A stretch of DNA of 64,000 nucleotides, from the NCBI GenBank assembly GCA_964517125.1, contig CAZFBD010000001.1, forward strand, positions 236,338 to 300,337, read 5' to 3'. The first letter of the stretch is position 1, and each line of letters begins with the position of its first letter. This document shows, piece by piece, positions 11,359 to 60,979 of this stretch. Below the pieces are notes generated by a model that did no database searches, was not told where the DNA came from, and saw only the letters and a list, made by a program, of their open reading frames with translations. The translations under genes were made by a program, and so were the position numbers. Source of the stretch: an uncultured Acidimicrobiales bacterium. GTDB lineage: Bacteria; Actinomycetota; Acidimicrobiia; Acidimicrobiales; SHLQ01.

Positions 11359-13503
11359 CTAGGAGAGATCGAAACGATCTGCGTCCATCACCTTTGCGAA
11401 GGCGGCGGCGAAGTCGTTTGCGAACTTCTCTGCAGCGTCATCGGCGGCGTAGACGTCGGCGATCGCACGAAGAATCGAGTTCGAGCCGAACACGAGGTCG
11501 TTGCGGGTACCCGTCCACTTGGCCTCACCGCTCGCACGGTCCTTGCCTTCGAAGACGCCCTCTTCACCGGCAGCCGTCCACTCGGTGTTGTAGTCCATCA
11601 GGTTGACAAAGAAGTCGTTGCTGAGGGTTCCAACGTTGTTGGTGAGAACGCCGTGTCCGTCGGTGGTGACACCGAGAACACGCAAGCCAGCCACGAGTAC
11701 GGACATCTCTGGGGCGCTCAGGCCGAGGAGCTGTGCCTTGTCGACGAGCAGGTGCTCGGCCACGAGGGCGTTGCCCTTGCCAAGGAAGTTCCGGAATCCG
11801 TCCCACTTCGGCTCAAGCCATGCGAAGGACTCTTCGTCGGTCTGCTCCTGGGTCGCATCGCCGCGACCTGTGCTGACCGCAACACTGACGCTGTTGCCAC
11901 CTGCGGATGCAGCGGCTTCGACAGCAGCAGCGCCACCAAGGACGATGAGGTCCGCCATGGAGACGTCGACGCCGACGCTGGACTGCACACCTTCGAGGGC
12001 GGACAGTACGCCCGAGAGCGTGTCCGGGCTGTTTGCTTCCCAGCCGCTCTGCGGGGAAAGGCGAAGGCGAGCGCCGTTGGCGCCACCACGCATGTCGCTT
12101 CCACGGTAGGTGGATGCCGAGGCCCAGGCGGTCGACACAAGGTCGGTGATGCTCACACCGGAAGCCATGATTGCGGCCTTGACGGTCGCAACGTCGGCGT
12201 CGCTGAGTGCGGTGCCTGCAGGAACGGGGTCCTGCCAGATGAGCTCTTCGCTGGGAACCTCTGGGCCGAGGTAACGGACAGCCGGGCCCATGTCTCGGTG
12301 GGTCAGCTTGTACCACGCACGTGCGAATGCATCGTCGAGGAGCGACTGGTCGTCACGGAAGCGCTGCGAGATGGGACCGTAGATCGGGTCCATCTTCATG
12401 GCCATGTCGGCCGTCGTCATCATGGGTGCGTGGAACACGTCACCGCGATGCGCGTCGGGCACGGTGCCAGCAAGCGCCGGTGCGTGCCACTGCTTGTGAC
12501 CCGACGGGCTCTCGGTGAGCTCCCAATCGTTGTCCATGAGGGTCTCGAGGTAGTTGTTGTCCCACGTGGTGGGCGTGGAGTTCCATGCGCCTTCGAAACC
12601 GGAACCGGTGGTGTGCTCGGCCTTTCCGGACTCGAAGTCGTTCTTCCAGCCGATGAGCTGCTGCTCCATGGGAGCACCTTCGGGCTCAGCGTTGACCATG
12701 TCCTCGGGGCCGGCACCGTGTGCCTTGCCGAATGCATGGCCGCCGACCACGAGCGCAACGGTCTCTTCGTCGTTCATTGCCATGCGGCCGAACGTCTCGC
12801 GAATGTCGCGGCCAGAGGCGACGGGATCGGGGTTGGCGTTCGGGCCTTCCGGGTTCACGTAGATGAGGCCCATCTGCACGGCGCCGAGTGGCTCGAGCAG
12901 GTCACGGTCGCCGCTGTAGCGCTCGTCGTCGAGCCAGACGCTTTCGGGTCCCCAGTAGATGTCTTCTTCAGGAGCCCACACGTCTTCACGTCCGCCGGCG
13001 AAGCCGAAGGTCTCGAAGCCCATGGATTCGAGGGCGACGTTGCCGGTGAGGATCATGAGGTCGGCCCAGCTGAGCTGGCGGCCGTACTTCTTCTTGATCG
13101 GCTCGAGGAGAAGGCGAGCCTTGTCGAGGTTGACGTTGTCGGGCCAGCTGTTGAGCGGAGCGAAACGCTGGGTGCCGGAAGCGCCGCCGCCGCGACCGTC
13201 GTGGGTACGGTAGGTGCCGGCGGAGTGCCATGCCATGCGGATGAAGAACGGGCCGTAGTGACCGTAGTCGGCAGGCCACCAGTCCTTGGAGTCCGTCATG
13301 AGGGCGGTGAGGTCGGCCTTGACGGCAGCGAGATCGAGCTTGGCAAACTCCGAGGCGTAGTCGAAGTCGTCGCCCATCGGGTTCGAGGCGGCAGAGTGCT
13401 GATCCAGGATGTTCAGGTTGAGCTGGTTTGGCCACCACTGTTGGTTTGCCGAGGAACCCACGTCGTTCTGGTGAAAGACCGGGCACTTGTTTTCGTCAGT
13501 CAT
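11359..13503 (-). CDS. katG: catalase-peroxidase
   Basis: 714 aa with [21 protein letters not shown], and a duplicated peroxidase-domain architecture. Confidence 0.97.
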
Positions 13504-13571
13504 ATTGCTCCTTGATTACTGAGATGTTGGTTGGTTGGTGAGAATGTGGGTGTTCGGATCGCCGTGCGAGT

Positions 13572-13997
13572 TCAGTTCTTTCGGCACGACGGGCACCGAC
13601 CCCAATAGACAACTTCGGCTTCATCGATTTCGAATCCGTGGTCGTCGTTGGCTGTGAGGCACGGGGTTTGCCCGACCGCACAGTCGATGTCGAACATGAT
13701 GCCGCATCCGCGGCACACGAGATGGTGGTGGTTGTCCCCGACGCGATCTTCGTACCGTGCCGGCGAACCAGTTGGCTGGATCCGGCGGATGAGCTGTTTG
13801 TCCAGGAACACACCAAGCGTGTCGTAGACCGCCTGACGCGAGATGGATCCAATACTGGCTCGCACGTCTTCGGTAAGCTCTTCGGTCGTGGCATGAGGAC
13901 GGTCGGCGACGGCCTGCAGAATCGCCAGCCGCTGTGCGGTGACCTGCACTCCGTGTGTACGGAGCTGTTGCTCGATGCCGTTGTTCATCGAAGTCAA
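13572..13997 (-). CDS. furA: Fur family transcriptional regulator (FurA-type, upstream of katG)
   Basis: 141 aa with HHHLVC..C and C..C metal-site motifs and a winged-helix N-terminus. It lies 68 bp upstream of katG on the same strand, as in mycobacterial furA-katG. Confidence 0.85.
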
Positions 13998-20872: not shown

Positions 20873-21490
20873 TCAGTCGTTGTCGGAGGTGCCGGCTCCG
20901 GCGCCGTCTCGGCTGGCCTCAGTGGCCGGGGCATAGGTTCGGTGAGCGAACGCCTCGAGCCCGGCGCGGGTCTCCTCCGATAGATCCACGCGGCTTCTTC
21001 GTTCCACGGCGTTGGATTCACCGGGGCCCGTAACGCCGATGGTCAGGGGGTGCGTGCCCGCGGGGAGGTCGCCCTGCACCGTGAGCGACGTGGGGGTGAT
21101 CACGCTCCTGCCGCCGGACCATTCGAGCGTCGTGACTTGAGTGACATCCGATCCGCTCACCACCTGGAGGAACGGGATCAGCAGCAGGGGTTCCGCAGTG
21201 GGGCCGATGGTGTCGATCGGAACACTGCCGAGATCCGTGGCTGCGCTGCCGACGCAAATGGGGCACAGGCTGTTCACTCTGGCTCTCCAGGCTTCATCGG
21301 GCATGAGCGACGAAACGGCTCGTCCGTCGACGTGCTGGAGCAGCCGAAGCAGCACATCACCCGCCGGCAGCCCTGCCTCCGCAAGTCTGCTGGCAGCGAA
21401 GGCGCCATCCTCTGTGAGCCCCCAGGAGTATCCGACGCCCCGTAGCGCCTTGGCCGTCAGCGCTCGGAACTCGCCGAGCGACAGGTTCAT
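20873..21490 (-). CDS. DUF3726 family protein
   Basis: 205 aa starting at the ATG at 21490 (MNLSLGEFRALTAKALRGVGYSWGLTEDGAFAASRLAEAGLP). The N-terminal pattern matches my recollection of DUF3726. There is an ATGA overlap with the upstream gene. Confidence 0.5.
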   Translation of the reverse strand: MNLSLGEFRALTAKALRGVGYSWGLTEDGAFAASRLAEAGLPAGDVLLRLLQHVDGRAVSSLMPDEAWRARVNSLCPICVGSAATDLGSVPIDTIGPTAEPLLLIPFLQVVSGSDVTQVTTLEWSGGRSVITPTSLTVQGDLPAGTHPLTIGVTGPGESNAVERRSRVDLSEETRAGLEAFAHRTYAPATEASRDGAGAGTSDND

Positions 21491-23166
21491 GAGGCGAGAT
21501 CCACGGACGGATAGGTCCACGTGTCCGGGTCCGAGGACGAGAGATCGTCGGGAAATGGGGCGCCACGGAACATGTTGATGCGGACCCACCGGTCGGATCG
21601 CGGGTCGAAATGGGTGGCACCAAAGAAGCTGAGCTTGGCACGGAGCAGGTCGATGGGCAGCATGTCGGCATCGATCGTGTTGTCGCGAATCTCGGCATAC
21701 GGGGCTGTGGACGCCACGACGAGACGCCGAGCCATGTGGCGATGTTCGGGGCGCATCCGTAGGAACGCCGCCAACGTCTCCGACTCGGCCCACGATTCGA
21801 GTGCGGCGAACATTCGCGCAGCGTCACGTCCGGGCTGTAGGGGCTGCTCGAAGTCACCAACCGGCTCCTCGTGCCGCTCCCCCAACCTGGGCTCCAGCTT
21901 CTCCTCCGACACGTACCACGCTCGTGCGTCGGACATTGCCGAGTCCCAGTCGATGTCCAGGGCCCAGCCGTACTGGTCCTGAAGCTGGGCTCGGACCGCA
22001 GCAACCGTCGTTGCGCCATCGATCCAAACGGGAGTCGACTCGTCGGCATGCATCGTGTCGGCGAGGTCGTCGACGAGCTCGCCGTACGGTTCCATCAACA
22101 GTGAAACGATCAGTTCCTGGCCTTCGATGGACAGTTCAGCCGACGACCAGTCGACCAGTCGCTGCCACGGAAAGGCTCCGGAGAGCGCGTCGCCCTGCAG
22201 ATGCCGAGTGAGCAACTCCAGATCGTTCCGAAGCCCGGAGATCTTTGTCTGCTGGAGCTCATGTTCGGAATGCCACGAGTCGACCGAGAGACGCGCCCGA
22301 CGAACAAACAGTTCGAAGGTGCGAACGTCGGCCGGTGCTGGAGTCTCAACCGCGCACACTCTGGCCAGACCTGCCTCGCGTGCCGCGATCCAGTTGTTGA
22401 TGAGCCGTGGGTGCGTCAGCAGGAACGGAGCCATCCCGAGACCGGTGGAGTTTCCAATTCCGAATCGCCGCCGAAGCGCAGGATCGAGCCTCACGGCGTT
22501 CGGCGAGGCTGCGGCCGCCATGTGCTCCACGAGGTCCATGACGAAGGTGCGAATCAGGTAGACCGTGAGCATCTCTGCCTGAAAGGGTGCCAACAGCTCG
22601 GGGCGGTCGGCGATCGATTGACGGTCTGCGGCGCCGAACTTGCCGGAGCCGTACACGGCGGTGGTTCGCATCAGGTACCCGACCTGTTCGATGGCCTCGG
22701 GATCGGGCTGGTCACCGGCCGCAAGCGTCTCGACCACGGAGGACCAAAGACGGACGGATCGATTCGCTCGAGACAGGGTGAGCTCGCGCTCGGAGACGCG
22801 CCCGGCCTCCTGGAGCGGGACGTTGGCGCGGAGCCGTTCGATGTCGTCGGGAGTGGGGACGCCGTCGTGCAAGGCAAAGGTCGTGTCCCAGGCAGTGGCG
22901 ATCACCCGGTCGGACCGCAGTTCGTCGGGAAGGTCGTGAGCGAACGCGACGAGGGTGTAGGTCCGGCTGGGCGTGGTGGCCGAGTACAAGGCGTGGCCGA
23001 CGCCCCGCTCGTCGATTTCGAACTTGGGCCGGTCGAAGGTCCACGACTCAGCCTTCATACGACGGAGCAGGGTGCGCATGAAGGACAGGCGGCACTGGTG
23101 AAACGAGCCCATACGTTCCAAGCGCATGACCGTGCCCGGTGATCGGAGCTCCACTGATGGTGTCAT
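21487..23166 (-). CDS. conserved-looking hypothetical protein, 559 aa, no recognisable domain
   Basis: It has coding-like composition across 1.68 kb. The ATG at 23166 lies 1 nt after the TGA of the upstream M19-like gene. I rejected the longer 662 aa track ORF because it overlaps that gene. I could not assign any motif. Confidence 0.6.
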   Translation of the reverse strand: MTPSVELRSPGTVMRLERMGSFHQCRLSFMRTLLRRMKAESWTFDRPKFEIDERGVGHALYSATTPSRTYTLVAFAHDLPDELRSDRVIATAWDTTFALHDGVPTPDDIERLRANVPLQEAGRVSERELTLSRANRSVRLWSSVVETLAAGDQPDPEAIEQVGYLMRTTAVYGSGKFGAADRQSIADRPELLAPFQAEMLTVYLIRTFVMDLVEHMAAAASPNAVRLDPALRRRFGIGNSTGLGMAPFLLTHPRLINNWIAAREAGLARVCAVETPAPADVRTFELFVRRARLSVDSWHSEHELQQTKISGLRNDLELLTRHLQGDALSGAFPWQRLVDWSSAELSIEGQELIVSLLMEPYGELVDDLADTMHADESTPVWIDGATTVAAVRAQLQDQYGWALDIDWDSAMSDARAWYVSEEKLEPRLGERHEEPVGDFEQPLQPGRDAARMFAALESWAESETLAAFLRMRPEHRHMARRLVVASTAPYAEIRDNTIDADMLPIDLLRAKLSFFGATHFDPRSDRWVRINMFRGAPFPDDLSSSDPDTWTYPSVDLAS

Positions 23167-23167
23167 G

Positions 23168-24208
23168 TCATGCAACCCGTTCCGGTCCGAAGTTCTCGTC
23201 GAAGAACCGGTACCAATTGTCACCCATGACCGCAGCGACCGACGGATCGTCGAAGCCAACCGCCCGAAGTCCGGATTCGAGGTTGCCGAAGTCTTCGTTC
23301 GATTCGAACCAGCCGGGCTGCGGTGGGAAGCCCGGGGCTGACGCCGAGCCTTCGCCAAAGTCGATACCTTTCGTCCAGCGCCCAACCCGCATCCATTCAA
23401 CGATGGAGTCGGGTTGGTCCTGGCACAGGTCGCTTCCGATACCGAAGTGCTCCACACCATAGGTCTCGGCAGCATCGGCCACCATCTGGCAGAAACTCTC
23501 GAGTGTGCAGTCGGTCTTGTCCTTCAGGTGGTGCGGGTACAGCGAGAAGCCCATCATGCCGCCGTTGGCGGTGACGGCGTTGATGACCTCGTGCCGTTTG
23601 TTGCGCAGCGCCGGGTGCCATGCATGCGGGTTGGCGTGCGTGATGGCGATCGGACGCTCGGAGAGTTCGGCAGCCTCGATTGTGGAGCGGTCGGCCGAGT
23701 GGCTCATGTCGACGACGAGCCCGACACGATTCATCTCCTTGATGACCTCTTTGCCCATGCGGGTGATCCCCGGATCCTCGGCTTCGTAGCAACCCGTGGC
23801 GAGGAGCGACTGATTGTTGTAGCTGAGCTGCATGAAGCGAGCGCCGAGGGTGTGCAGGATCTCCACGAGGTCGATGTCGGCTTCGATGGGCGACGGGTTC
23901 TGGAAGCCGAAGAAGATTGCCGTTCGGTCGGTCTCGCGGGCCCGGTCGATGTCGGCGGCGGTTCGACCGAGGAGGATCAGATCCGAGTGCTGATCAAACC
24001 ACCGGTTCCACTTGGAGAATTCGGCGACGGTCTCACGGAACGTCTCGTGATACGCGATGGTCACGTGCACAGCATCGACGGCGCCGTCCCGCATTTGGCG
24101 AAAGATCGCCTCGGACCAGTTGGCGAACTGCAGGCAGTCGATGCGGTACATGATGCAATGGTACGGCCGTGCCTTGCCCGTGTCCCATATCGGTTCGCCG
24201 TCCACCAA
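23168..24208 (-). CDS. M19 (renal/membrane dipeptidase) family protein, variant lacking the N-terminal HxD
   Basis: It has VVDMSHS, AITHANP, GIGSDL and FFGFQNPSPIE motifs of the M19 amidohydrolase fold. The N-terminus reads IDCLQF instead of DGHND. The start is uncertain: TTG at 24208 or ATG at 24151. Confidence 0.75.
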   Translation of the reverse strand: MVDGEPIWDTGKARPYHCIMYRIDCLQFANWSEAIFRQMRDGAVDAVHVTIAYHETFRETVAEFSKWNRWFDQHSDLILLGRTAADIDRARETDRTAIFFGFQNPSPIEADIDLVEILHTLGARFMQLSYNNQSLLATGCYEAEDPGITRMGKEVIKEMNRVGLVVDMSHSADRSTIEAAELSERPIAITHANPHAWHPALRNKRHEVINAVTANGGMMGFSLYPHHLKDKTDCTLESFCQMVADAAETYGVEHFGIGSDLCQDQPDSIVEWMRVGRWTKGIDFGEGSASAPGFPPQPGWFESNEDFGNLESGLRAVGFDDPSVAAVMGDNWYRFFDENFGPERVA

Positions 24209-24245: not shown

Positions 24246-25286
24246 CTATCGGAGCGTCACCCCGACCCGGCCAGCCTCGGTGGCGCCAATTCGGGCGGCC
24301 GTGTGACCAGACGAAGCAAGTTCTGCGAGCACGTTGGATGTTGCGTCGGGACTGACCCCGAAGATCAGTCCGCCAGAGGTCTGAGCATCGGCGAAGAGGA
24401 GTTGATGCAGCTCGTCGTGCGAGCCTGCATCGAGATGCTCCGCGCCCCAGGCAAGGTTCCGCCGTGATCCGCCCGGCATGACGCCACCAGCTGCATGCTC
24501 TTTGGCGCCGTCGAGGAACGGGATCCGATCGAACTCGACGATGGCGTTCACCGAGGACTCAAGCGCCATGCGCCCCAGGTGTCCGAGAAGCCCGAATCCC
24601 GTCACATCGGTGCAACCAGTGGCTCCGGCTGCGACGGCAACACGCGAAGCGACGTCGTTCAACCTGGTCATGGAGTCGATTGCCTCGGCCGCCTGCTCAG
24701 GACTGGCCACGTCGGCCTTGATTGCCGTGGTGATGACGCCCACTCCGAGCGGCTTGGTCAAGATGAGGTCCTGTCCGGGCGTGAGCCCAGCGTTGGTCAG
24801 AATGCGGTCCGGATGGACCTCACCGGTCACGGCCATGCCGTACTTCGGTTCCGGGTCATCGATCGTGTGGCCGCCAACAATGGCGAAACCGCCTTCGGTG
24901 GCGATGTCCTGACCACCGGCAAGCAGTTCTCCCAAGAGCGACGTCGGGAGCGCGTCGGTGTTCCAACCCACGAGGTTCAGGGCGAACAGCGGACGGCCGC
25001 CCATGGCGTAGACGTCGGAAACGCTGTTGGCTGCGGCCACGCGGCCCCAGGTTCTGGCGTCGTCGACGACTGGCGTGATGAAGTCGGCGGTCGAGACGAT
25101 GGCCCGTTCCGCGTCGAGCTTCCACACGGCGGCATCGTCGCCGGTGGCTGTTCCCACGAGCAGTTCGGCAGGGTTGGCTGCATGCAAATCGCGCACGACG
25201 TGCGCGAGCTCGCCTGGAGCGAGCTTGCAGCCTCAACCGGCGCCGTGGCTGAACTGGGTGAGACGATGCGTTGTTGGTTCGGTCAT
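24246..25286 (-). CDS. selD: selenide, water dikinase (selenophosphate synthetase), selenocysteine-containing form with TGA-Sec at 25233-25235
   Basis: The track ORF (24246-25196) lacks the SelD N-terminus. Reading 30 codons further upstream in the same frame from the ATG at 25286 gives MTEPTTHRLTQFSHGAG-TGA-GCKLAPGELAHVVRDLHAANP. This is the canonical SelD glycine-rich loop (E. coli HGAGCGCK) with TGA at the Cys17 position. The rest of the protein has typical AIR-synthase-fold SelD sequence. Confidence 0.9.
25207..25225 (-). other. candidate bacterial SECIS hairpin of selD
   Basis: On the mRNA: UGA-N7-AGCUCGC-UCCAG-GCGAGCU, a perfect 7 bp stem. A second hairpin, GCGCAC-GUC-GUGCGC, follows. 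Confidence 0.5.
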
Positions 25287-33616: not shown

Positions 33617-34006
33617 ATGGCGTTCGGTCAGGCTTCGGGTCCACCCGCAACCGGAAAACAGATGCGTGACCTGGAGGAGCTGTTGCAGGCGGCCGGTCAT
33701 GTCGACTTTCGCGACGCTCGAGGCCCCATGGGGTTCACCCAGCGGCAGGCTGGCGGCAAGTTCACTCGCGATGAGGCCGAGTCCTTCATCGAACAGCTCC
33801 AGGCCGAGGTGCATGGTGACGGCCCCCCGGTGAACGTGGTCGAGACATCGTCGACGAGCATGGCGCGTCCCAAGGCGCCGAAACCAACCCCGCGGAACAC
33901 CAAGAAGTCATCAGGCCGTGACGACCACGTGGATCTCGCGAGCATTCCGTCCGAGCGTCTCGCGGCCGAGCTGCAGGCGCGCGGCTGGGCGGTTCTGGAG
34001 CCCTGA
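33617..34006 (+). CDS. hypothetical protein (129 aa)
   Basis: Isolated ORF with coding-like composition. It has a helical N-terminus, a Lys/Pro-rich linker and a short C-terminal domain. I did not recognise a family. Confidence 0.45.
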   Translation: MAFGQASGPPATGKQMRDLEELLQAAGHVDFRDARGPMGFTQRQAGGKFTRDEAESFIEQLQAEVHGDGPPVNVVETSSTSMARPKAPKPTPRNTKKSSGRDDHVDLASIPSERLAAELQARGWAVLEP

Positions 34007-34019
34007 ACTCCTGCCTGGG

Positions 34020-34490
34020 TCAGTCGCCCAGCAGGATCTTTGCCGCGTTCCCAACCCGGTTGTTCAGGTTCGCCTGACCGCAGACAGCAATCAGCTCCGC
34101 CCGTTCCTGTTCGCTGAAGTGCGAACGGAGCGACTCCTGAAGCGGCGCCGGCAGTTCGTGGGTCTCGCCGCACATCGCATCGGCAAGCTGCAGAGCCACC
34201 ATGGTGGACGGGTCGTACGTATCGGCCCAACTGTCGGGGTCGTGCAGCGCCTCGATCTCGGCGTCGGAGAGTCCTCGTCGTCTACCCGAGACGACATGGC
34301 TACTCAGTCAAGTGGGGCATTGATTGACGATCGAGGTCCGCATGAACACCAGCTCCTTGACCACGGCGGGAACTGCGAGGTCATCGGACCACAGTGCTGC
34401 TCCGAACTCCTTGTACGAGTCGGCCGTGCCGTCGACGAGCGCCAACGTGTACCCCATCGGGGCACCGGACAGTTTGAATCGAATTGCCAT
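34020..34490 (-). CDS. AhpD-like / carboxymuconolactone decarboxylase family selenoprotein (CxxU), with TGA-Sec at 34308-34310
   Basis: Two 60 aa track ORFs (34308-34490 and 34020-34202) lie in the same frame, and the stretch between them is open apart from one TGA. The joined reading is ...VKELVFMRTSIVNQCPT-TGA-LSSHVVSGRRRGLSDAEIEALHDPDSW...LADAMCGE.... This reproduces the AhpD-core signature N-x-C-x-x-C-x-x-x-H with TGA at the second Cys. The product is 156 aa. Confidence 0.85.
34277..34295 (-). other. candidate SECIS hairpin of the AhpD-like gene
   Basis: On the mRNA: UGA-N11-(U)GUCGUCU-CGGGU-AGACGAC(G), 7 Watson-Crick pairs plus one U-G wobble. Confidence 0.55.
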
Positions 34491-34511: not shown

Positions 34512-35843
34512 TCACGGTCCGGAGAACACGCCCCCGGCGTCGGCGCCAAGGTTTGCGTAGTAGTCGCGCTTGGGGTCGTAGTCGATACGTCCACCGGCTT
34601 CCTTGGCCCGAAGCTCTGCGCGGCCGACAACATGCCAGTGCACCTCATCGGGACCATCGGCGAGGCGGAGCGTGCGCTGGCCTGCGTACATGGACGTGAG
34701 GGGCGTCCAGTTCGAGACGCCGGTTGCGCCGTGCACCTGAATTGCTTCGTCGATGATCTCGCAGACGCGAATGGGCACCAGGGCCTTGACTGCGCTGATC
34801 CAGACCCGAGCCTCGGCATTGCCGAGCTCGTCCATGGCCTTGGCTGCGGTGAGCACCATGCGACGCATGGACTCGATGTCGATGCGGGCCTTCGCGACGG
34901 TCTCCACGTTCTTGCCGAGGTTGGCGATGGGCTTGCCGAAGGCTTCGCGGGTGAGGCCGCGCTTGACCATGAGGTCGAGGGCCCGCTCGGCGGCGCCGAT
35001 GGAGCGCATGCAGTGATGGATGCGGCCCGGGCCGAGACGGAGCTGCGAGATCTCGAAGCCTCGCCCTTCGCCCAACAGCATGTTGGACGCAGGCACCCGC
35101 ACGTCGTTGAAACGAATGTGCATGTGTCCGTGCGGAGCGTCGTCGTTGCCAAAGACGTGCATGGGCCCGAGAACCTCGTAGCCCTCGGCATCGGTGGGAA
35201 CGAGGATCTGGGACTGCCGCTGGTGCGCTGGACCGTCGGGGCTGGTCTCGAGCATGCAGATCATGATCTTGCAGCGCGGATCGCCAGCGCCGGAGATGTA
35301 GTACTTCTCACCGCTGATCACCCATTCGTCGCCATCCTTGACGGCCTTGCAGGCGATCTGCTTGGCGTCGGAGGAGGCCACATCGGGTTCGGTCATGGCG
35401 TATGCCGAGCGAATCTCGCCGTTGAGCAGCGGGGTGAGCCACTGTGCCTTCTGCTCGTCGGTGCCGACGCGTTCGAGGACTTCCATGTTGCCGGTGTCGG
35501 GCGCTGCACAGTTCATCGATTCGGACGCGATCGGGTTCTTGCCGAGCTCTGTGGCGATGTAGGCGTAGTCGAGGTTGTTCAGGCCCTCGCCGGTCTCGGC
35601 GTCGGGAAGGAAGAAGTTCCAGAGGCCGGCTTCGCGTGCCTTCGCCTTGATGGAGTCCAGCAGCTCGAGCTGACCCTCGCCGTAGCCCCATCGTTCGGCG
35701 CGGCCTTCGCCGAGACGGAAGAACTCGTGCGTGTGCGGTTCGACCTCGTCGGCGATGAACGCAACGACGGCGTCGAACAACGGGCGTGCTCCCTCGGACA
35801 TACGCAGGTCGTACATCTCGGGTGTGCTCGGCAACGCGGTCAT
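34512..35843 (-). CDS. acyl-CoA dehydrogenase family protein (ACAD10/11- or FadE-like)
   Basis: 443 aa with YAMTEPDVASSDA and QVHGATG motifs. Its stop lies 21 bp upstream of the AhpD-like start. Confidence 0.85.
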   Translation of the reverse strand: MTALPSTPEMYDLRMSEGARPLFDAVVAFIADEVEPHTHEFFRLGEGRAERWGYGEGQLELLDSIKAKAREAGLWNFFLPDAETGEGLNNLDYAYIATELGKNPIASESMNCAAPDTGNMEVLERVGTDEQKAQWLTPLLNGEIRSAYAMTEPDVASSDAKQIACKAVKDGDEWVISGEKYYISGAGDPRCKIMICMLETSPDGPAHQRQSQILVPTDAEGYEVLGPMHVFGNDDAPHGHMHIRFNDVRVPASNMLLGEGRGFEISQLRLGPGRIHHCMRSIGAAERALDLMVKRGLTREAFGKPIANLGKNVETVAKARIDIESMRRMVLTAAKAMDELGNAEARVWISAVKALVPIRVCEIIDEAIQVHGATGVSNWTPLTSMYAGQRTLRLADGPDEVHWHVVGRAELRAKEAGGRIDYDPKRDYYANLGADAGGVFSGP

Positions 35844-35918: not shown

Positions 35919-37076
35919 CTATCGGTGGCCGGGCGCCATGTAGAACCAGAACGGGAACGGAGCGTCCTGCGCTTTCATGCTCTCTCGAGCTTTGAGCACG
36001 GTGCGCCCCGCTTCGGTTGATTCGAAGAACCACGCCTCGGCGGCTCGCCCGCCGGGTGTTGGGCCGGTGGCGAGTTCAAGAGCGGCTTCGTTGTAGTACG
36101 CCCGGATGTCATGGCAGACGGCCACCGTGTTCTTGCCAGGCAGCGCGACCTCTTTCCAGTTGGCGCCCTCGGCCCACTGATGCAGGACGTCCAGCACCGT
36201 CGCAATGTCGTCGGGACCAACGGCTCGTCCGACTGCCGTGACGCCTCGACGCTGCACGGCTCGGTCGTACGCGGCCCGGAGTCCGCGGGCCTCGTCCACG
36301 GCAGGAGGAAGTGATGCGTCGTACCGAGGTGGAATCGTGCACGAGAGGGGCATTTCATCGGATTCGATCACGTCGGGGTGCGTCTCGAGCACGGGCTCCG
36401 GAGAATCGAGCAATGCGAGCGCCCGTTCGAGCACGTCCCGTTGGAAGGCAGCTTCACCAGGCCGTCCGAGCGGTCGGCCCAGCGGAAACTCGCAGTAGAG
36501 AACTCGAGGTGGTGCCATTCGTTCCGCCACCTCTTTCATCGAGGCCAGGACCACGGTTGCCAGACCGGCTGCTTCAAAGACGTGGGCAAGCACACTCACG
36601 GTGCGCGTACATTCCGGTCAAACGGGTGTGAGGATCACGACATCGACGCCGTCCGAGAGCAACTCCCGGGCGCAGGCCGGTGCAGTGTCGAGGCGGACCT
36701 CGCTGACGGTTTCCGGCTGATTCCCGGCGAACGCGAAGTGGCGGGGAGCCACTTCACCAATGACCCCGTCGGAAGCCAACTCCTCCAAACGGTCGATCGG
36801 GTAGACCACGTTCAGGTCGATCTGGAAACCGGTGTGGTCGAAGTTCGGGCTCCAATGACCCATGACGATGTTGCGGTCGGCGCGGTCGAGCGCACGGAAG
36901 CCGGTATCGGAGTTCGTGAAACGGTCCTGATCGGGTCGGTGGAGGGCAGCCGAGGTCACGACAGCCACGCGAAGCTCCGACAGCGGCTTGTCGAGCCGGG
37001 TGAAGGCCGGGTCGTCGAAGGTCGGCACCGGTTGGTTGACCCCGTACTCGCGCATTGCTGCATCGCCACCGGCCAT
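35919..37076 (-). CDS. PrdB/GrdB-family (glycine/sarcosine/betaine/D-proline reductase component B-like) selenoprotein, with TGA-Sec at 36618-36620
   Basis: The ATG at 37076 is preceded by AAGGAG. Track ORFs 36618-37361 and 35919-36599 are in frame and separated by a single TGA. The joined reading is ...VAVVTSAALH...NFDHTGFQIDLNVVYPIDRLEELASDGVIGEVA...GVDVVILTPV-TGA-PECTRTVSVLAHVFEAAGLATVVL. It parallels the PrdB/GrdB core (VFPIDRL..EG.IG; DAVILT..U..C........E.AGIP) with TGA at the Sec position. The product is 385 aa. Confidence 0.85.
36590..36606 (-). other. candidate SECIS hairpin of the PrdB/GrdB-like gene
   Basis: On the mRNA: UGA-N11-GCGCAC-CGUGA-GUGUGC, a 6 bp stem including one G-U pair. 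Confidence 0.5.
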
Positions 37077-37233
37077 CGTTTCTCCTTTGGTCACGCAGCG
37101 CCGTTTCCGCTGCGGTTCAGAAGCTAGTCGCTCGGCCAGCGCCGGCCGTTCTCGCAGATCGCTGTGTGTCCCGAGAATGCGAACGGCCTTGGCGCGTGGG
37201 ATCGTTGACGGGCCACACACCGAGGGAGTTGCC

Positions 37234-42753: not shown

Positions 42754-44079
42754 TCAGACCAGATCGAGAGAAAGCTCCGTGAGCAGCTCGGGGCCAGCGT
42801 CGGTGACCAACACCTGGTTTTCAAGCTTCACGCCTTCTCCGCCCACGCGGGGCCCGACGAAGCTCTCCACGGTCAGGACCATGCCGGCCTCAAGAACGCC
42901 GTCGTATCCCCAGTCTTCCCACTGTTCCGGCCAGTAGATCTCGGGGTACTCGTCGCACTGCCCCACCCCGTGGAACTGACAGCAGTAGCGGCGGTATTCG
43001 TCCCATGGCGGCGACCACGAATCGAACGTGAGCTGCTTCAGCGTCGTTCCGGGACGAAGCAGTTCGGTGTTGCGGTGAATCTGCTCGAGAGCAAGGGCAT
43101 GGGTTGACGCCTGCGCTGCCGTGGGGGTGCCACCACCTACGAGCCAGGTTCGGGAAATGTCGACCATCATCCCGTATGCCCCGACCAGGTCGGTGTCATA
43201 GCCGAGAAGGTCGCCCTCCTCGAGAATGCGGCTGCTGGCCTCCTGCATCCACGGGTTGGTGCGGGGCCCTGACGCCAGAATCTGCGTCTCGATCCACTCC
43301 CCTGCCCGACGAATGTTGCCGGCATGGAGGATGGACCACACATCGCGCTCGGTCATTCCGGGAGCCATTGCCTCCTGCATCTCGACCATGGTGGTCTGGC
43401 ACGCATGGGCTGCACACCGCATGGCCCGGATCTCGTCGGGGCTCTTGATCACCCGGGCGAGCTCCATCATCTCGACACCGTTGCCGACCTCGATGCCCGC
43501 CTGGGCGAAACGTTGATAGCCGATCGGATGGCACTGGTCGACCGCGATTCTGGCCCCGGGACCGGCGTGCCCGGTCACGACATCGATGATCTCGTCGGCG
43601 AACTTGTTTGCCTGTTCAGCCCACCGTGGCCCGGCGAGGAAGTACGTGGAACCTCGGGCCGGTCGGGTCTCGGTCACGGCAGGGTTGTGGGCGTCGAGGA
43701 ACTGACATTCGTTGAACTCCCACACGATGCAGGAGCCGTCCATGCCGACCCAGCAATACCGCGCGGCGTTGTGCATCACCCAGATCTGCATGTTGGTGGA
43801 ATCGGTCGCGTAGCGAATGTTCATGGGGTCCATGAGCAGGGCGCCGTCGTACCCCATCTTCTCCATTTGGGCGCGAACCCGTCCGATTCGGTATTCCCGC
43901 ATCGCCGGCAGGTTCGGGAGCTCCAATCCGGCAGCCACCCACTCGGCCTCGAGTTGTTCCCCCGGCCCGATGTTCAGGTGGTGGAGGTCTGTGGCGGCTC
44001 GATTCACCTCGGCAGAGGCATCGGCGAGGCTGAGAGCGATCTTTGGCTGCTTCGGTGGAGCCGTGTCGTGCATGACCAT
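42754..44079 (-). CDS. DddP-like M24-fold protein (candidate dimethylsulfoniopropionate lyase family)
   Basis: 441 aa starting at the ATG at 44079. Several stretches match what I recall of roseobacter DddP rather than generic prolidase or creatinase: DPMNIRYATDSTNMQIW, SPDEIRAMRCAAHAC, GEWIETQILASGPRTNPWMQE, YDTDLVGAYGMMVDISRTW, HGVGQCDEYP, VKLENQVLVT. Confidence 0.6.
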   Translation of the reverse strand: MVMHDTAPPKQPKIALSLADASAEVNRAATDLHHLNIGPGEQLEAEWVAAGLELPNLPAMREYRIGRVRAQMEKMGYDGALLMDPMNIRYATDSTNMQIWVMHNAARYCWVGMDGSCIVWEFNECQFLDAHNPAVTETRPARGSTYFLAGPRWAEQANKFADEIIDVVTGHAGPGARIAVDQCHPIGYQRFAQAGIEVGNGVEMMELARVIKSPDEIRAMRCAAHACQTTMVEMQEAMAPGMTERDVWSILHAGNIRRAGEWIETQILASGPRTNPWMQEASSRILEEGDLLGYDTDLVGAYGMMVDISRTWLVGGGTPTAAQASTHALALEQIHRNTELLRPGTTLKQLTFDSWSPPWDEYRRYCCQFHGVGQCDEYPEIYWPEQWEDWGYDGVLEAGMVLTVESFVGPRVGGEGVKLENQVLVTDAGPELLTELSLDLV

Positions 44080-44181
44080 CGTCACAGTGTGGCACGGTCG
44101 GTTGCCAGCGTCATGGTCCTGACGGAGGTGCGCTACGTTCGCGTCACTGCGTCGGATGAGGTCACGGGCTAAACAGTTGGC

Positions 44182-45363
44182 ATGCTCTCCGACGCTGCGA
44201 TCAAGGACATCCGACTGGTCACGCCGGGCGTCGATCATGTGTTGCACTTCAACAACGCTGGCAGTGCTCTGCCGCCCAATGTCGTGCTCGAGACCGTCGT
44301 GCGTCATTTGGAACGCGAGGCGACCATTGGAGGCTACGAAGCAGCAGCTGAGGCACACGACCGCCTCGAGGCCGTATACGGGTCGCTGGCCACGCTCCTC
44401 GGCGCCGCTTCCGAAGAGATCGCGGTCGTCGAGAATGCGACGCGAGCCTGGGACATGGCGGTGTACGGCTATCCGTTCGTGCAGGGAGACCGCGTGCTCA
44501 CGTGCCGCGCCGAGTACGTCAGCAACATCGTTGCTCTGCTGCAACTCGAGAAGACCCGAGGCATCGAGCTCGTACTCATCGAAGACGATGCCGACGGCCA
44601 GATTGACCTCGCTCATCTGGAGAGCGAACTGTCCACAGGTGCCGCCATGGTGGCGATGACCCACGCTCCCACCAATGGCGGGCTCATCAATCCTGCCCGG
44701 GAGGTCGGCGTTCTCTGTCGGGCGTACGACACCTTCTACGTCCTCGATGCCTGCCAATCGGCGGGCCAGGTACCGCTGGATGTTCAGGAGATCGGGTGCG
44801 ACGTGCTGTCCGGCACCGGCCGCAAATACCTCCGAGGTCCTCGGGGCACCGGGTTCCTGTACGCGGGTCCCCGAGCAATCGAACGAATCGAGCCGCCGTT
44901 CCTGGATCTTCACGCTGCGGAGTGGACGAGCGAGCGTACCTACGAAATTCGGGCTGACGCTCGCCGATTCGAGAACTGGGAAACCAACTACGCCGGAAAA
45001 CTCGGGCTCGGAGCCGCCGTCGACTACGCCCTCGACCTTGGAGTCGCCGAAACCTCCGACCGAATCGTCCAGCTTGGAGCCGAGCTGCGCACATCCCTCG
45101 ACTTGTTGCGAGGCGTATCGGTTCACGACAAGGGTGCGCAGAGGGGTGGCATCGTGACGTTCGCTGTCGATGGCATCGAGGCCGAGAGTGTGCATGCCCA
45201 ATTGCGGGCTCAGGACATCAACACGTCGACCTCGCCGGTTACACACGCACGCATGGACCTCCCTCATCGTGGTCTGCCCACGCTCGTGCGGGCATCCGTC
45301 CACTACTACAACGACCAGGACGAAATCGTCCGCTTCGTCGAGGCGGTATCCCGTCTGCGCTGA
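44182..45363 (+). CDS. class V aminotransferase-fold PLP enzyme (cysteine desulfurase / selenocysteine lyase / C-S lyase-like)
   Basis: 393 aa with LDACQSAGQ, the PLP-Lys motif GTGRKYLRGPRGTGFLY, and a C-terminal VRASVHYYN. Confidence 0.75.
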   Translation: MLSDAAIKDIRLVTPGVDHVLHFNNAGSALPPNVVLETVVRHLEREATIGGYEAAAEAHDRLEAVYGSLATLLGAASEEIAVVENATRAWDMAVYGYPFVQGDRVLTCRAEYVSNIVALLQLEKTRGIELVLIEDDADGQIDLAHLESELSTGAAMVAMTHAPTNGGLINPAREVGVLCRAYDTFYVLDACQSAGQVPLDVQEIGCDVLSGTGRKYLRGPRGTGFLYAGPRAIERIEPPFLDLHAAEWTSERTYEIRADARRFENWETNYAGKLGLGAAVDYALDLGVAETSDRIVQLGAELRTSLDLLRGVSVHDKGAQRGGIVTFAVDGIEAESVHAQLRAQDINTSTSPVTHARMDLPHRGLPTLVRASVHYYNDQDEIVRFVEAVSRLR

Positions 45364-59224: not shown

Positions 59225-60979
59225 TCACGTGGTGCAGTCCTGACCGATGTTGCACACGAGGTCACTCGCCGGGGTGTGGTCGATGGCCTTGGTGGTCCAC
59301 CATCCGTGGGGCCCGTCGTTGCTGAGCGCGTAGGCGTTGGTTCGGTTCGGGTCGCCGGCCACCGCGATCATGAACCGCTCGGGTTTGGTCACGATGGGGA
59401 CAGGACGAGCGGGGTCATCCGACGCAGCGAAGACGTCTGGGAGCAGATTCTCGTTCACCAGCTCGTGCAGCGTTCGCCGGCCGGCGGTGAGGTTGCTCCA
59501 CTCCCCGATCATGGCTTCGAACGTGCTTGCCGGTATTCGAGCGTGTTCGAACAGCCCACCCTGCACGTCGTGTTTGGACCAGCCTGCGTTCGCGAAGATG
59601 CGGGCAAGAACCGGGGACAGCACGAGCAATGGTTGGAACTGGTCGTGGCCCAGTCCGTGGACGTGGGTGAGGTCCCACGCCGCGGTCCGGGCCAGGCCAT
59701 TGCCGAGGTAGGGCAGGATCTCTTCTGGAGCGGAGCCGAAGACGCTGCCGATGATCGTGCCGCTGTTCATGCGAGCCATGGTCACGGTGTCATCGTGCGC
59801 GCTGAAGCCGAAGCTGGCCGACAGCGGTTCCCAGCCGATCTCCTCGAGGCACGCCATGTCTTCAGCCAGCACCACGCGAGTGCTGTTTCCGAAGGTCGCC
59901 TTGTCATGCTCCTCAGCGGTGAACCCGAACACGTTGCGGAGGTACAGCCGGAGCCAGCGCCCGACGCACGTGTTCGCGTGGGCTCCTTCGCGCAGCGCTC
60001 CGGGTCCGGAGTTGAAGCCGAGTGCGTCTACGTTCGGGCCATCGACAATGACCAGTGCATCTGCACCCGTTGTATTGCCGGAGTGTTCGGCGCCATAGTC
60101 CGGGTCGGCGAGCACCTCACACATACCGAGCAACACCGGGAGGTGTTCCGGGCGGCAGCCTGCCATGACGGCGTTGACGGCAACCGACCAGACCGTGAGA
60201 TCGCGCCCGCTCGACGACGCGACCCCAAGGATCTTCCACGGGTCGTGGCCCGATTCGGCAAGGAACGCCTCGACCCGATCCCGGGTTGGCGGCACGATGG
60301 GACTGCCGTCGGTCCAGCCGTTCGCCAGGAACACCTCGTGAATGTGATCGATCGCGCCGGAGGCGACGACGTCGAGGGCCGTGGGTTCGTCGCTCCCCTC
60401 TCCCTCATGTTCTGCCTCCACCGTGAGCCCATCGATGATCTGCTGCACGGTCGACTCGATGAAGTTCTGCACCATCACCTCGTACGGTTGCGCGTCGACG
60501 TGACCCACGGTGACGGCCAACGGGAGGCCATCGTGGCCATGTCCGCGCGCAGTTGCATTCGCCTGGCCAGCGAAACCCTCGCACACGATGGAGACCGAAG
60601 GGATTCCCGCCGACTCCGCTGCCATGGCTGCCCGCATCACGGCGGGCGTACAGCTGCCTCAACAACCCATCCCGGACACGACGGCATCGACCCCGCGACT
60701 CCGCAGGTCGTCGGGAAGGCGACCCACCCGCTCCTTCTCGTCAGAACCGTGCAGGTTCCCGAACACCGTGTGATCCACAATCTCGAGATCCGCTGACCGC
60801 GCCTTCAGCTCTCGTTCGAGCACGGGGAACAGTTCGTCGCCGCGAAACAGGTAGTCCCAGAGGAACGCAACTCGCTTGCCGTCAAGCGTGCGCAGCCGCG
60901 CAGCGGTTCGCCGTTGTTGGATCCCTCGCGGTGCGCTCGGCCAGACCACCTCGTACATCGGTTCCATATACGACATCAT
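59225..60979 (-). CDS. UGSC-motif selenoprotein module fused to a ~400 aa domain of unknown function, with TGA-Sec at 60659-60661
   Basis: Track ORFs 60659-60979 and 59225-60640 are in frame and separated by one TGA. The joined reading is ...RSRGVDAVVSGMGC-TGA-GSCTPAVMRAAMAAESAGIPSVSIV..., which gives a C-U-G-S-C motif in a context resembling the GrdB/PrdB Sec loop. After an acidic linker (EAEHEGEGSDEP), a large domain follows (GWTDGSPIVPPTRDRVEAFL...) that I cannot assign. The product is 584 aa. Confidence 0.8.
60630..60647 (-). other. candidate SECIS hairpin of the UGSC gene
   Basis: On the mRNA: UGA-N11-GCCCGC-CGUGAU-GCGGGC, a perfect 6 bp stem. Confidence 0.5.

Follow-up and report, generated by a model that had tools for sequence, protein, structure and literature searches.

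The stretch of DNA analysed here (the window; 64,000 nucleotides from an uncultured Acidimicrobiales bacterium, assembly GCA_964517125.1, contig CAZFBD010000001.1, positions 236,338 to 300,337 of the forward strand) carries on its minus strand a complete gene for a protein that resembles PrdB and GrdB, the B subunits of D-proline and glycine reductase. The frame opens with an ATG at 37076, closes with a TAG at 35921..35919 and is interrupted by a single in-frame TGA, which a preliminary description of the locus had taken for a selenocysteine (Sec) codon within one joined open reading frame (ORF) of 385 residues. The coordinates of that ORF proved exact, the family motifs it was said to carry (VVTSAALH, NVVYPIDRLEELASDGVIG and GVDVVILTPV-U-PEC...EAAGL, with the TGA at U) were all found in frame, and the good ribosome-binding site and the hairpin 11 nt after the TGA that had been reported are both present, the latter as a 6-bp stem, GCGCAC-CGUGA-GUGUGC, at precisely that distance. 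The gene and its parts are as follows.

35919..37076, minus strand: complete PrdB-like selenoprotein gene, 385 sense codons plus a TAG stop, with one internal TGA (from translation).
37082..37087, minus strand: Shine-Dalgarno-like AAGGAG, 5 nt 5' of the ATG (read from the sequence).
36402..37052, minus strand: N-terminal GrdB/PrdB-type domain, residues ~9-225 (from Pfam GRDB, TIGR04483 and 30% identity to PrdB P0232).
36618..36620, minus strand: TGA codon 153, assigned as the Sec codon and first position of U-P-E-C (from homolog loci and alignments).
36609..36611, minus strand: codon for Cys156 of the UxxC motif, invariant in alignments, with a putative resolving role by analogy to the PrdB mechanism (PMC3091704).
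36590..36606, minus strand: hairpin resembling a selenocysteine insertion sequence (SECIS), starting 11 nt after the UGA (stem 36606-36601, loop CGUGA 36600-36596, stem 36595-36590).
35922..36401, minus strand: C-terminal helical domain of ~160 residues without a known family (from family conservation and AlphaFold2).
36341..36339, minus strand: codon for the invariant Cys246 of the C-terminal domain.

A scan of one genome per species returned at least 576 stretches that encode a relative of the PrdB-like protein. The best 80 of these, all from metagenome-assembled genomes of Acidimicrobiia (Aldehydirespiratoraceae, Ilumatobacteraceae and others), encode homologs with 60-78% identity that align over residues 1-385 across the TGA, and all 80 carry TGA at the same column, as do 75 of 80 more diverse metagenome loci (G+C 50-75%), the motif search having met only unrelated sequence in the other five. 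In the alignment with P0232, a protein of 241 residues from our library search, the TGA falls on Cys151, the first Cys of a C-G-T-C motif; the PrdB of C. sticklandii has its Sec at position 152 of 242 residues (PMC3091704), and three reports give the PrdB motif as UxxC (PMC1088965, PMC2398784, PMC13188914). Of 13 full-length relatives (382-401 residues), eight have Cys at the column, four have Gly and one has Ser, with Pro154 and Cys156 invariant, a pattern with which a wider motif scan agrees, and in most members of the family the residue is U or C. The TGA column is thus the Sec/Cys column, matched by Cys151 of P0232 and by the Cys of the homologs, a point on which the preliminary description had staked its assignment. 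Comparison with close relatives revealed difference rates at the three codon positions of 0.145/0.066/0.586 before the TGA and 0.181/0.138/0.595 after it, with third-position differences dominating on both sides.

The hairpin behaves like a conserved RNA element. In 74 distinct homologous sequences 99.8% of its cells are paired, and one pair, in which the third, synonymous position of an Arg codon meets a Thr/Val/Ala codon, covaries (C:G in 36 sequences, U:A in 36 and U:G in two, with zero mismatches), counts that are inflated by relatedness and that amount to good evidence but not to formal proof. The remaining synonymous sites of stem and loop are invariant, whereas third positions farther downstream vary freely, and the CGUGA loop places a G in the apical loop, as for a SECIS stem-loop. 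Folded alone, the hairpin showed no significant stability relative to shuffled sequence (z = -0.5), and Rfam gave zero matches at gathering scores across the window.

The window also encodes selenophosphate synthetase and, counting it, three further selenoprotein genes.

24246..25286, minus strand: selD (selenophosphate synthetase), itself of the Sec type, with TGA at 25235..25233 in the motif SHGAG-U-GCK.
34020..34490, minus strand: AhpD-like/CMD selenoprotein gene with the motif C-P-T-U, TGA at 34310..34308 and a hairpin downstream, at the end of the co-directional run that includes the PrdB-like gene.
60967..59225, minus strand: UGSC-family selenoprotein fusion of 580 codons, with TGA at 60661..60659 in the motif GMGC-U-GSC.

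With Cys substituted for Sec, SelD scored 375.8 bits on TIGR00476 (cut-off 125); the selD UGA is followed by a stem-loop, GAGCUCGC-UCCAG-GCGAGCUC. No tRNA gene, hence no tRNA-Sec, lies in the window, and the window ORFs scanned included neither selA nor selB. If the TGA were instead a true stop, the locus would be a pseudogene or a pair of small genes of 152 and ~224 residues, as public gene calls would have it, which cut the gene into products of 152 and 224-226 residues, and a GTG start does lie after the TGA. We regard this as scarcely credible: 155 loci have the stop at this one column, invariably as TGA and not once as TAA or TAG, with flanking protein identity down to ~50%, Cys-containing homologs continue through that column, the covarying hairpin sits at the canonical SECIS distance, and the gene shares the window with Sec machinery and three more selenoprotein genes that contain TGA. 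Because of the conserved TGA, the Cys homologs, the coding signature on both sides, the covarying hairpin and selD in the window, we conclude that the PrdB-like gene is, as predicted from sequence, a genuine selenoprotein gene. UGA153 would be read as Sec by the bacterial SelB/SECIS route through the hairpin 11 nt downstream, with selenophosphate supplied by the selD of the same window.

To which family the protein belongs depends on the level at which the question is put. Residues 9-150 match profile positions 200-345 (of 347) of Pfam GRDB (PF07355) with 33.7 bits, above the cut-off of 22, and the hidden Markov model search thus places the protein in the GrdB/PrdB superfamily, as the preliminary description had it; every curated PrdB or GrdB model, on the other hand, stays below its cut-off, and that part of the assignment did not stand. 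On the PrdB model TIGR04483, residues 17-223 scored 128.2 bits against an equivalog cut-off of 300. GrdB-type models matched residues 10-224 with their C-terminal half only (profile positions ~199-421) and with 50-59 bits against cut-offs of 602-800 (TIGR01917, 59.2 against 602; the GrdF model, 58 against 800; the GrdH model, 49.5 against 775), and the subfamily model TIGR01918 gave 58 bits against 65.45. P0232, by comparison, scored 453 bits on TIGR04483 and is on that account a bona fide PrdB. In the representative protein library, 3140 clusters match at E<=0.001; many are fragments, which either stop at the Sec column or begin right behind it. The automatic names at JGI and NCBI are PrdB or selenoprotein B family. 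Our protein is thus a member of the GrdB/PrdB superfamily that by no curated threshold is a PrdB, GrdB, GrdF or GrdH.

The PrdB-like part, moreover, comprises only residues ~9-225, a point to be added to the earlier account. Residues 226-385 match no Pfam family (none even at E<=1) and no NCBIfam family. AlphaFold2 modelled the full protein from 14 sequences with a mean predicted local distance difference test score (pLDDT) of 86.5 and a predicted template modelling score of 0.83, with an alpha/beta domain at residues ~30-236 and a helical domain behind it, and the C-terminal 164 residues modelled alone formed six helices (pLDDT 84.9). Foldseek searches of the PDB with the full model and with the C-terminal domain returned zero hits at E<=0.001, and phmmer and profile searches of PDB sequences found nothing credible. 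The C-terminal domain is nonetheless conserved across the family, with Cys246, E262, E347 and W349 invariant, and the 14 full-length members share ~70 invariant positions, among them many polar residues (H46, D57, R68, D80, D87, N89, R128, R158, H165, E168, R186, R191, Q212, E262, E347 and W349 included). A clade with Gly at the Sec column (P0038, P0052, P0062, P0118; TPLGPMCTRT) retains both Cys156 and Cys246, a hint that the redox site may include Cys246. Since all curated PrdB and GrdB cut-offs were failed and an extra domain of ~160 residues is present, we place the protein in a separate subfamily, distinct from both PrdB and GrdB.

We then compared gene neighbourhoods. In the window the PrdB-like gene is divergent from an enolase-superfamily gene, whose closest match is cis-3-hydroxy-L-proline dehydratase (268 bits, cut-off 500), and it is followed on its own strand by one further gene before the AhpD-like gene.

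34512..35843, minus strand: acyl-CoA dehydrogenase (ACAD) gene, 75 nt downstream of the PrdB-like gene on the same strand (from Pfam ACAD domains).

No terminator-like site was found in the 75-nt gap. The co-directional run thus consists of the PrdB-like, ACAD and AhpD-like genes, an acyl-CoA dehydrogenase flanked by two Sec redox proteins; the AhpD-like product scored 43.2 bits on Pfam CMD (cut-off 23), and its gene is split by callers into ORFs of 49 and 60 residues. This arrangement is not shared by the relatives. A tblastn search of 167 loci with the joined AhpD-like protein found it on the window's own contig only, and none of 19 window neighbours, ACAD included, adjoins the homolog at any of the 80 genome loci. 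The sole window neighbour that recurs at all is an ORF of 129 residues without a Pfam or NCBIfam family (33617..34006, plus strand), relatives of which (~47% identical) lie just upstream and on the same strand at 7-8 of the 80 loci.

The wider survey gave the same picture. In a Pfam census of 105 immediate neighbours no family occurred more than five times, and GRDA, Gly_reductase and thioredoxin were absent from the 25 most frequent families. When flanking ORFs were clustered in 81 and then in 164 loci, the commonest clusters in the larger set were short-chain dehydrogenases/reductases (31), acyl-CoA synthetases (22) and enoyl-CoA hydratases (16), large generic families of varying position and orientation, none of them present at more than 19% of the 164 loci. 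The pre-annotated contexts of three Cys or Gly forms showed no consistent partner, and the upstream regions (n=160) contained no 8-mer in more than 12 of them and no conserved operator or promoter motif; a scan for promoters and terminators was likewise negative. At one locus (L084, 7236-7628, plus strand) a gene for a GCV_H-like lipoyl carrier lies 33 nt downstream of a Cys-form homolog, with an EthD gene upstream; such a lipoyl H-protein-like product could serve as a dithiol donor. In the window itself, neither GRDA nor Gly_reductase (PrdA/GrdE) nor a GrdC/D family was found among the ~55 ORFs scanned or pre-annotated, and the Gly_reductase/PrdA family is likewise absent within +/-10 kb of the PrdB-like gene, which bears out the earlier statement that PrdA, GrdA and GrdC-E partners are missing from the window. 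The link to ACAD, AhpD-like or enolase-superfamily genes that had been floated for this clade, in contrast, fell away (0 of 80 genomes). From these comparisons the PrdB-like protein is shown, as far as gene neighbourhoods can tell, to stand alone, with no conserved partner at any of the 164 loci.

The same evidence bears on whether the protein could serve as B subunit in a genuine reductase complex for D-proline, glycine, sarcosine or betaine, the genes for the other subunits lying elsewhere in the genome. The PrdB and GrdB models are its best family matches and the automatic names point the same way, but its scores lie far below every equivalog cut-off (128 against 300; 59 against 602), it has neither the third Cys of UxxCxxC nor a counterpart to the N-terminal half of GrdB, and the extra domain of 160 residues has no place in the PrdB P0232. 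In every organism studied, the prd genes reportedly form a single operon cluster (PMC3091704); even so, no PrdA, GrdE or GrdA figures among the 25 most frequent families of the 105 immediate neighbours; the hosts, furthermore, are aerobic Acidimicrobiia. We consider this alternative very improbable. Because no partner family recurs at the loci, the PrdB and GrdB cut-offs were failed and an extra domain is present, we conclude that the protein is in all likelihood not a subunit of a Stickland complex.

What the protein does instead can be proposed by analogy, most likely as a lone Sec153/Cys156 selenol-thiol reductase. PrdB itself is described as working by Sec attack followed by Cys resolution to an Se-S bond (PMC3091704). 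In our protein the Sec153 selenolate would attack an oxidised or electrophilic substrate, Cys156 would resolve the adduct to a selenenyl-sulfide, and a general dithiol system, for example thioredoxin, would re-reduce the latter, possibly through Cys246, while the C-terminal domain would take the place that PrdA or GrdE holds beside a B subunit. Our leading guess for the physiological role, held with a little less than even confidence, is housekeeping redox defence or repair (reduction of peroxides or of oxidised thiols) in preference to a dedicated catabolic step. A peroxidase activity of GrdB was reportedly described by Groebe et al. in 2007, to judge from the title that PMC3091704 and PMC2702500 cite. 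The guess is based on this activity, on the scattered, housekeeping-like gene context, on the aerobic hosts, on the co-directional cluster with an AhpD-like selenoprotein in the present genome and on the class of thiol oxidoreductases to which surveys assign the family: two selenoproteome surveys class it with the thiol-dependent redox proteins of oxic waters (PMC1088965, PMC2398784).

A self-contained enzyme for reductive C-X cleavage, serving the amine or osmolyte catabolic genes around it, is the other use to which a stand-alone protein of this kind might be put. Here Sec153 would attack the alpha-carbon of a carboxylate that bears a good leaving group and Cys156 would release the reduced acid, the candidate substrates being quaternary ammonium or sulfonium osmolytes (glycine betaine, proline betaine, dimethylsulfoniopropionate (DMSP)), an idea that goes back to the preliminary description. 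The PrdB/GrdB domain and the UxxC column are common to enzymes of that chemistry, the many conserved polar residues and the whole extra domain suggest a defined substrate pocket, and the window holds enolase-type, DddP-like M24, PhyH, arginase-family, major facilitator superfamily (MFS) transporter and ACAD genes. A betaine cannot form a Schiff base, moreover, and a betaine reductase would not need a pyruvoyl group. Yet these neighbours are not conserved with the gene (0 of 80 genomes; 164 loci); with a dedicated catabolic enzyme one would expect a transporter, a regulator or a downstream enzyme to move along. Their annotations are all below equivalog cut-offs, and in aerobic hosts oxidative demethylation routes are usual. 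We deem C-X cleavage unlikely, and within the stand-alone frame redox defence ranks slightly above it.

Taken as a whole, a two-domain selenoprotein, decoded with Sec and acting alone, with redox defence as the leading guess, is the best explanation that we can offer, and we hold it with slightly better than even confidence. Several points weigh against it. Partners may possibly be encoded elsewhere in the genome; the AhpD-like neighbour appears limited to the present genome; residue 153, to judge from the Gly clade, would not be indispensable in all lineages; and the many invariant polar residues, along with an extra domain that is large and conserved, would suit a specific small-molecule site better than a generic peroxidase.

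The bolder extension of C-X cleavage is that long-form PrdB-like proteins are the first single-polypeptide, pyruvoyl-independent selenoenzymes for reductive C-N or C-S cleavage in aerobes, with the orphan C-terminal domain replacing PrdA or GrdE as the substrate-holding partner and with aquatic betaines or DMSP-like osmolytes as substrates. We rate this as a long shot. Were it true, trimethylamine, dimethylsulfide or deaminated acids would arise in oxic waters by a selenium-dependent route so far unrecognised, and views of osmolyte turnover there would change; a peroxidase or thiol reductase, the reading that we prefer, would join the known set of Sec-based redox defences. The family in either case owes its annotation to analogy with an enzyme of anaerobic clostridia that, by the present analysis, it cannot be. 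With the stand-alone loci (164), the orphan C-terminal domain and the Sec in 80 of 80 Acidimicrobiia genomes, what was a mislabelled gene becomes a definite target for biochemistry, for which natural Cys forms exist (e.g. P0039, P0088) that can be expressed without Sec machinery. As a practical point of annotation, gene callers split the long-form gene into two 'hypothetical proteins' in hundreds of genomes.

The remaining genes of the window fit an aerobic, catalase-bearing host, as had been surmised. They include an NDH-2, several O2-dependent oxygenase families and a catalase-peroxidase.

11359..13997, minus strand: catalase-peroxidase KatG of 714 residues with two peroxidase domains, with a Fur-family gene directly upstream on the same strand.

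A furA-katG arrangement is known from actinobacteria, and the pair seen here resembles it and supports an aerobic lifestyle. Elsewhere, an M24-family protein of 813 residues (42754..45195, minus strand) resembles the DMSP lyase DddP in its C-terminal half, with 449 bits on NF043017 (cut-off 600); its gene stands in a block with PhyH, fatty-acid-hydroxylase, histidinol-dehydrogenase-like, MFS and enolase-superfamily genes, which may constitute an osmolyte or amine catabolic island. An ORF of 662 residues (21487..23475, minus strand) has good coding statistics and no Pfam or NCBIfam match, and adjoins an M19 dipeptidase-like gene (23168..24208) and selD. The UGSC fusion has a C-terminal region of ~400 residues without a Pfam family and probably corresponds to the 'UGSC/Unknown_1' fusion of the Global Ocean Sampling (GOS) paper. 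Its hairpin, GCCCGC-CGUGAU-GCGGGC, also lies 11 nt after the UGA and has in common with the PrdB-like SECIS the CGUGA loop.

Among known systems, PrdB (TIGR04483) shares a homologous domain of ~215 residues, with 30% identity to P0232 and Sec or Cys at the same UxxC column. PrdB, however, is a single domain of ~240 residues, without a counterpart to residues 226-385 of the window protein, and belongs to a prd operon with the pyruvoyl proprotein PrdA, whereas the window gene has no adjacent prd genes, an aerobic host and a variable context. GrdB, GrdF and GrdH are proteins of ~435 residues whose C-terminal half the window protein matches and whose N-terminal ~200 residues it lacks; the GrdB-type motif is UxxCxxC (PMC13188914), as against U-P-E-C-T-R-T here, and of their partner genes (grdA, grdE or grdG/grdI, grdC, grdD) none occurs among the window ORFs scanned or among the 25 most frequent neighbour families of the homologs. 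UGSC (PF24696) is like the PrdB-like protein in being a stand-alone Sec protein of aerobic aquatic bacteria, and in both a D-x-V-V strand precedes the UxxC and an A-x3-E-x-A-G-[IL]-x-[ST]-V helix-strand follows it. The flanking domains differ and the similarity is distant: hhalign paired the two domains over 104 columns with a probability of 84.8% and an E of 6.6e-6, from a shallow UGSC alignment (effective number of sequences 1.4), and BLASTP of 60967..60400 against 36750..36400 (both minus strand) gave 37% identity across 41 residues. When aligned, the UxxC motifs fall within one residue of each other, and the two domains appear to be distantly homologous around the Sec site.

The nearest match of all is with the 'PrdB' of the ocean selenoproteome surveys. 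In the Sargasso Sea survey, 'proline reductase PrdB' (UxxC, pfam07355) is the third most abundant known selenoprotein family, with 42 Sec genes and one Cys homolog (Zhang et al. 2005, PMC1088965), and in the GOS survey PrdB is among the top families, with 235 Sec and 110 Cys forms in 38 samples (Zhang & Gladyshev 2008, PMC2398784); Sec forms thus outnumber Cys forms in oxic aquatic metagenomes in both. 'Proline reductase' selenoproteins have also been listed for Anaeromyxobacter and Geobacter. The novelty that the preliminary description implied was therefore overstated, the family having been in such surveys since 2005 and its long form in GOS since 2008, while its statement that the function of stand-alone homologs is not established accords with the full-text literature searched, where we found no functional study of the stand-alone PrdB-like form. 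In the accessible parts of both surveys the family is treated as proline reductase, and the long stand-alone form and its gene neighbourhood are not separated out; what is new here is the systematic evidence that it stands alone, the delimited orphan C-terminal domain and the comparative support for its SECIS element. The stored text of GOS Dataset S1 contains TPVUP 29 times and UPLCTRT 22 times, and one of its entries, JCVI_READ_1280943, is 45% identical to our protein (E 1e-93) across a stretch of 317 residues that takes in both TPVUPLCTRT and the C-terminal domain. The window gene is thus another member of the GOS and Sargasso 'PrdB' family, of the same long form and with nothing essential different, and that family has been catalogued for some twenty years, since 2005, under a name that it does not deserve.

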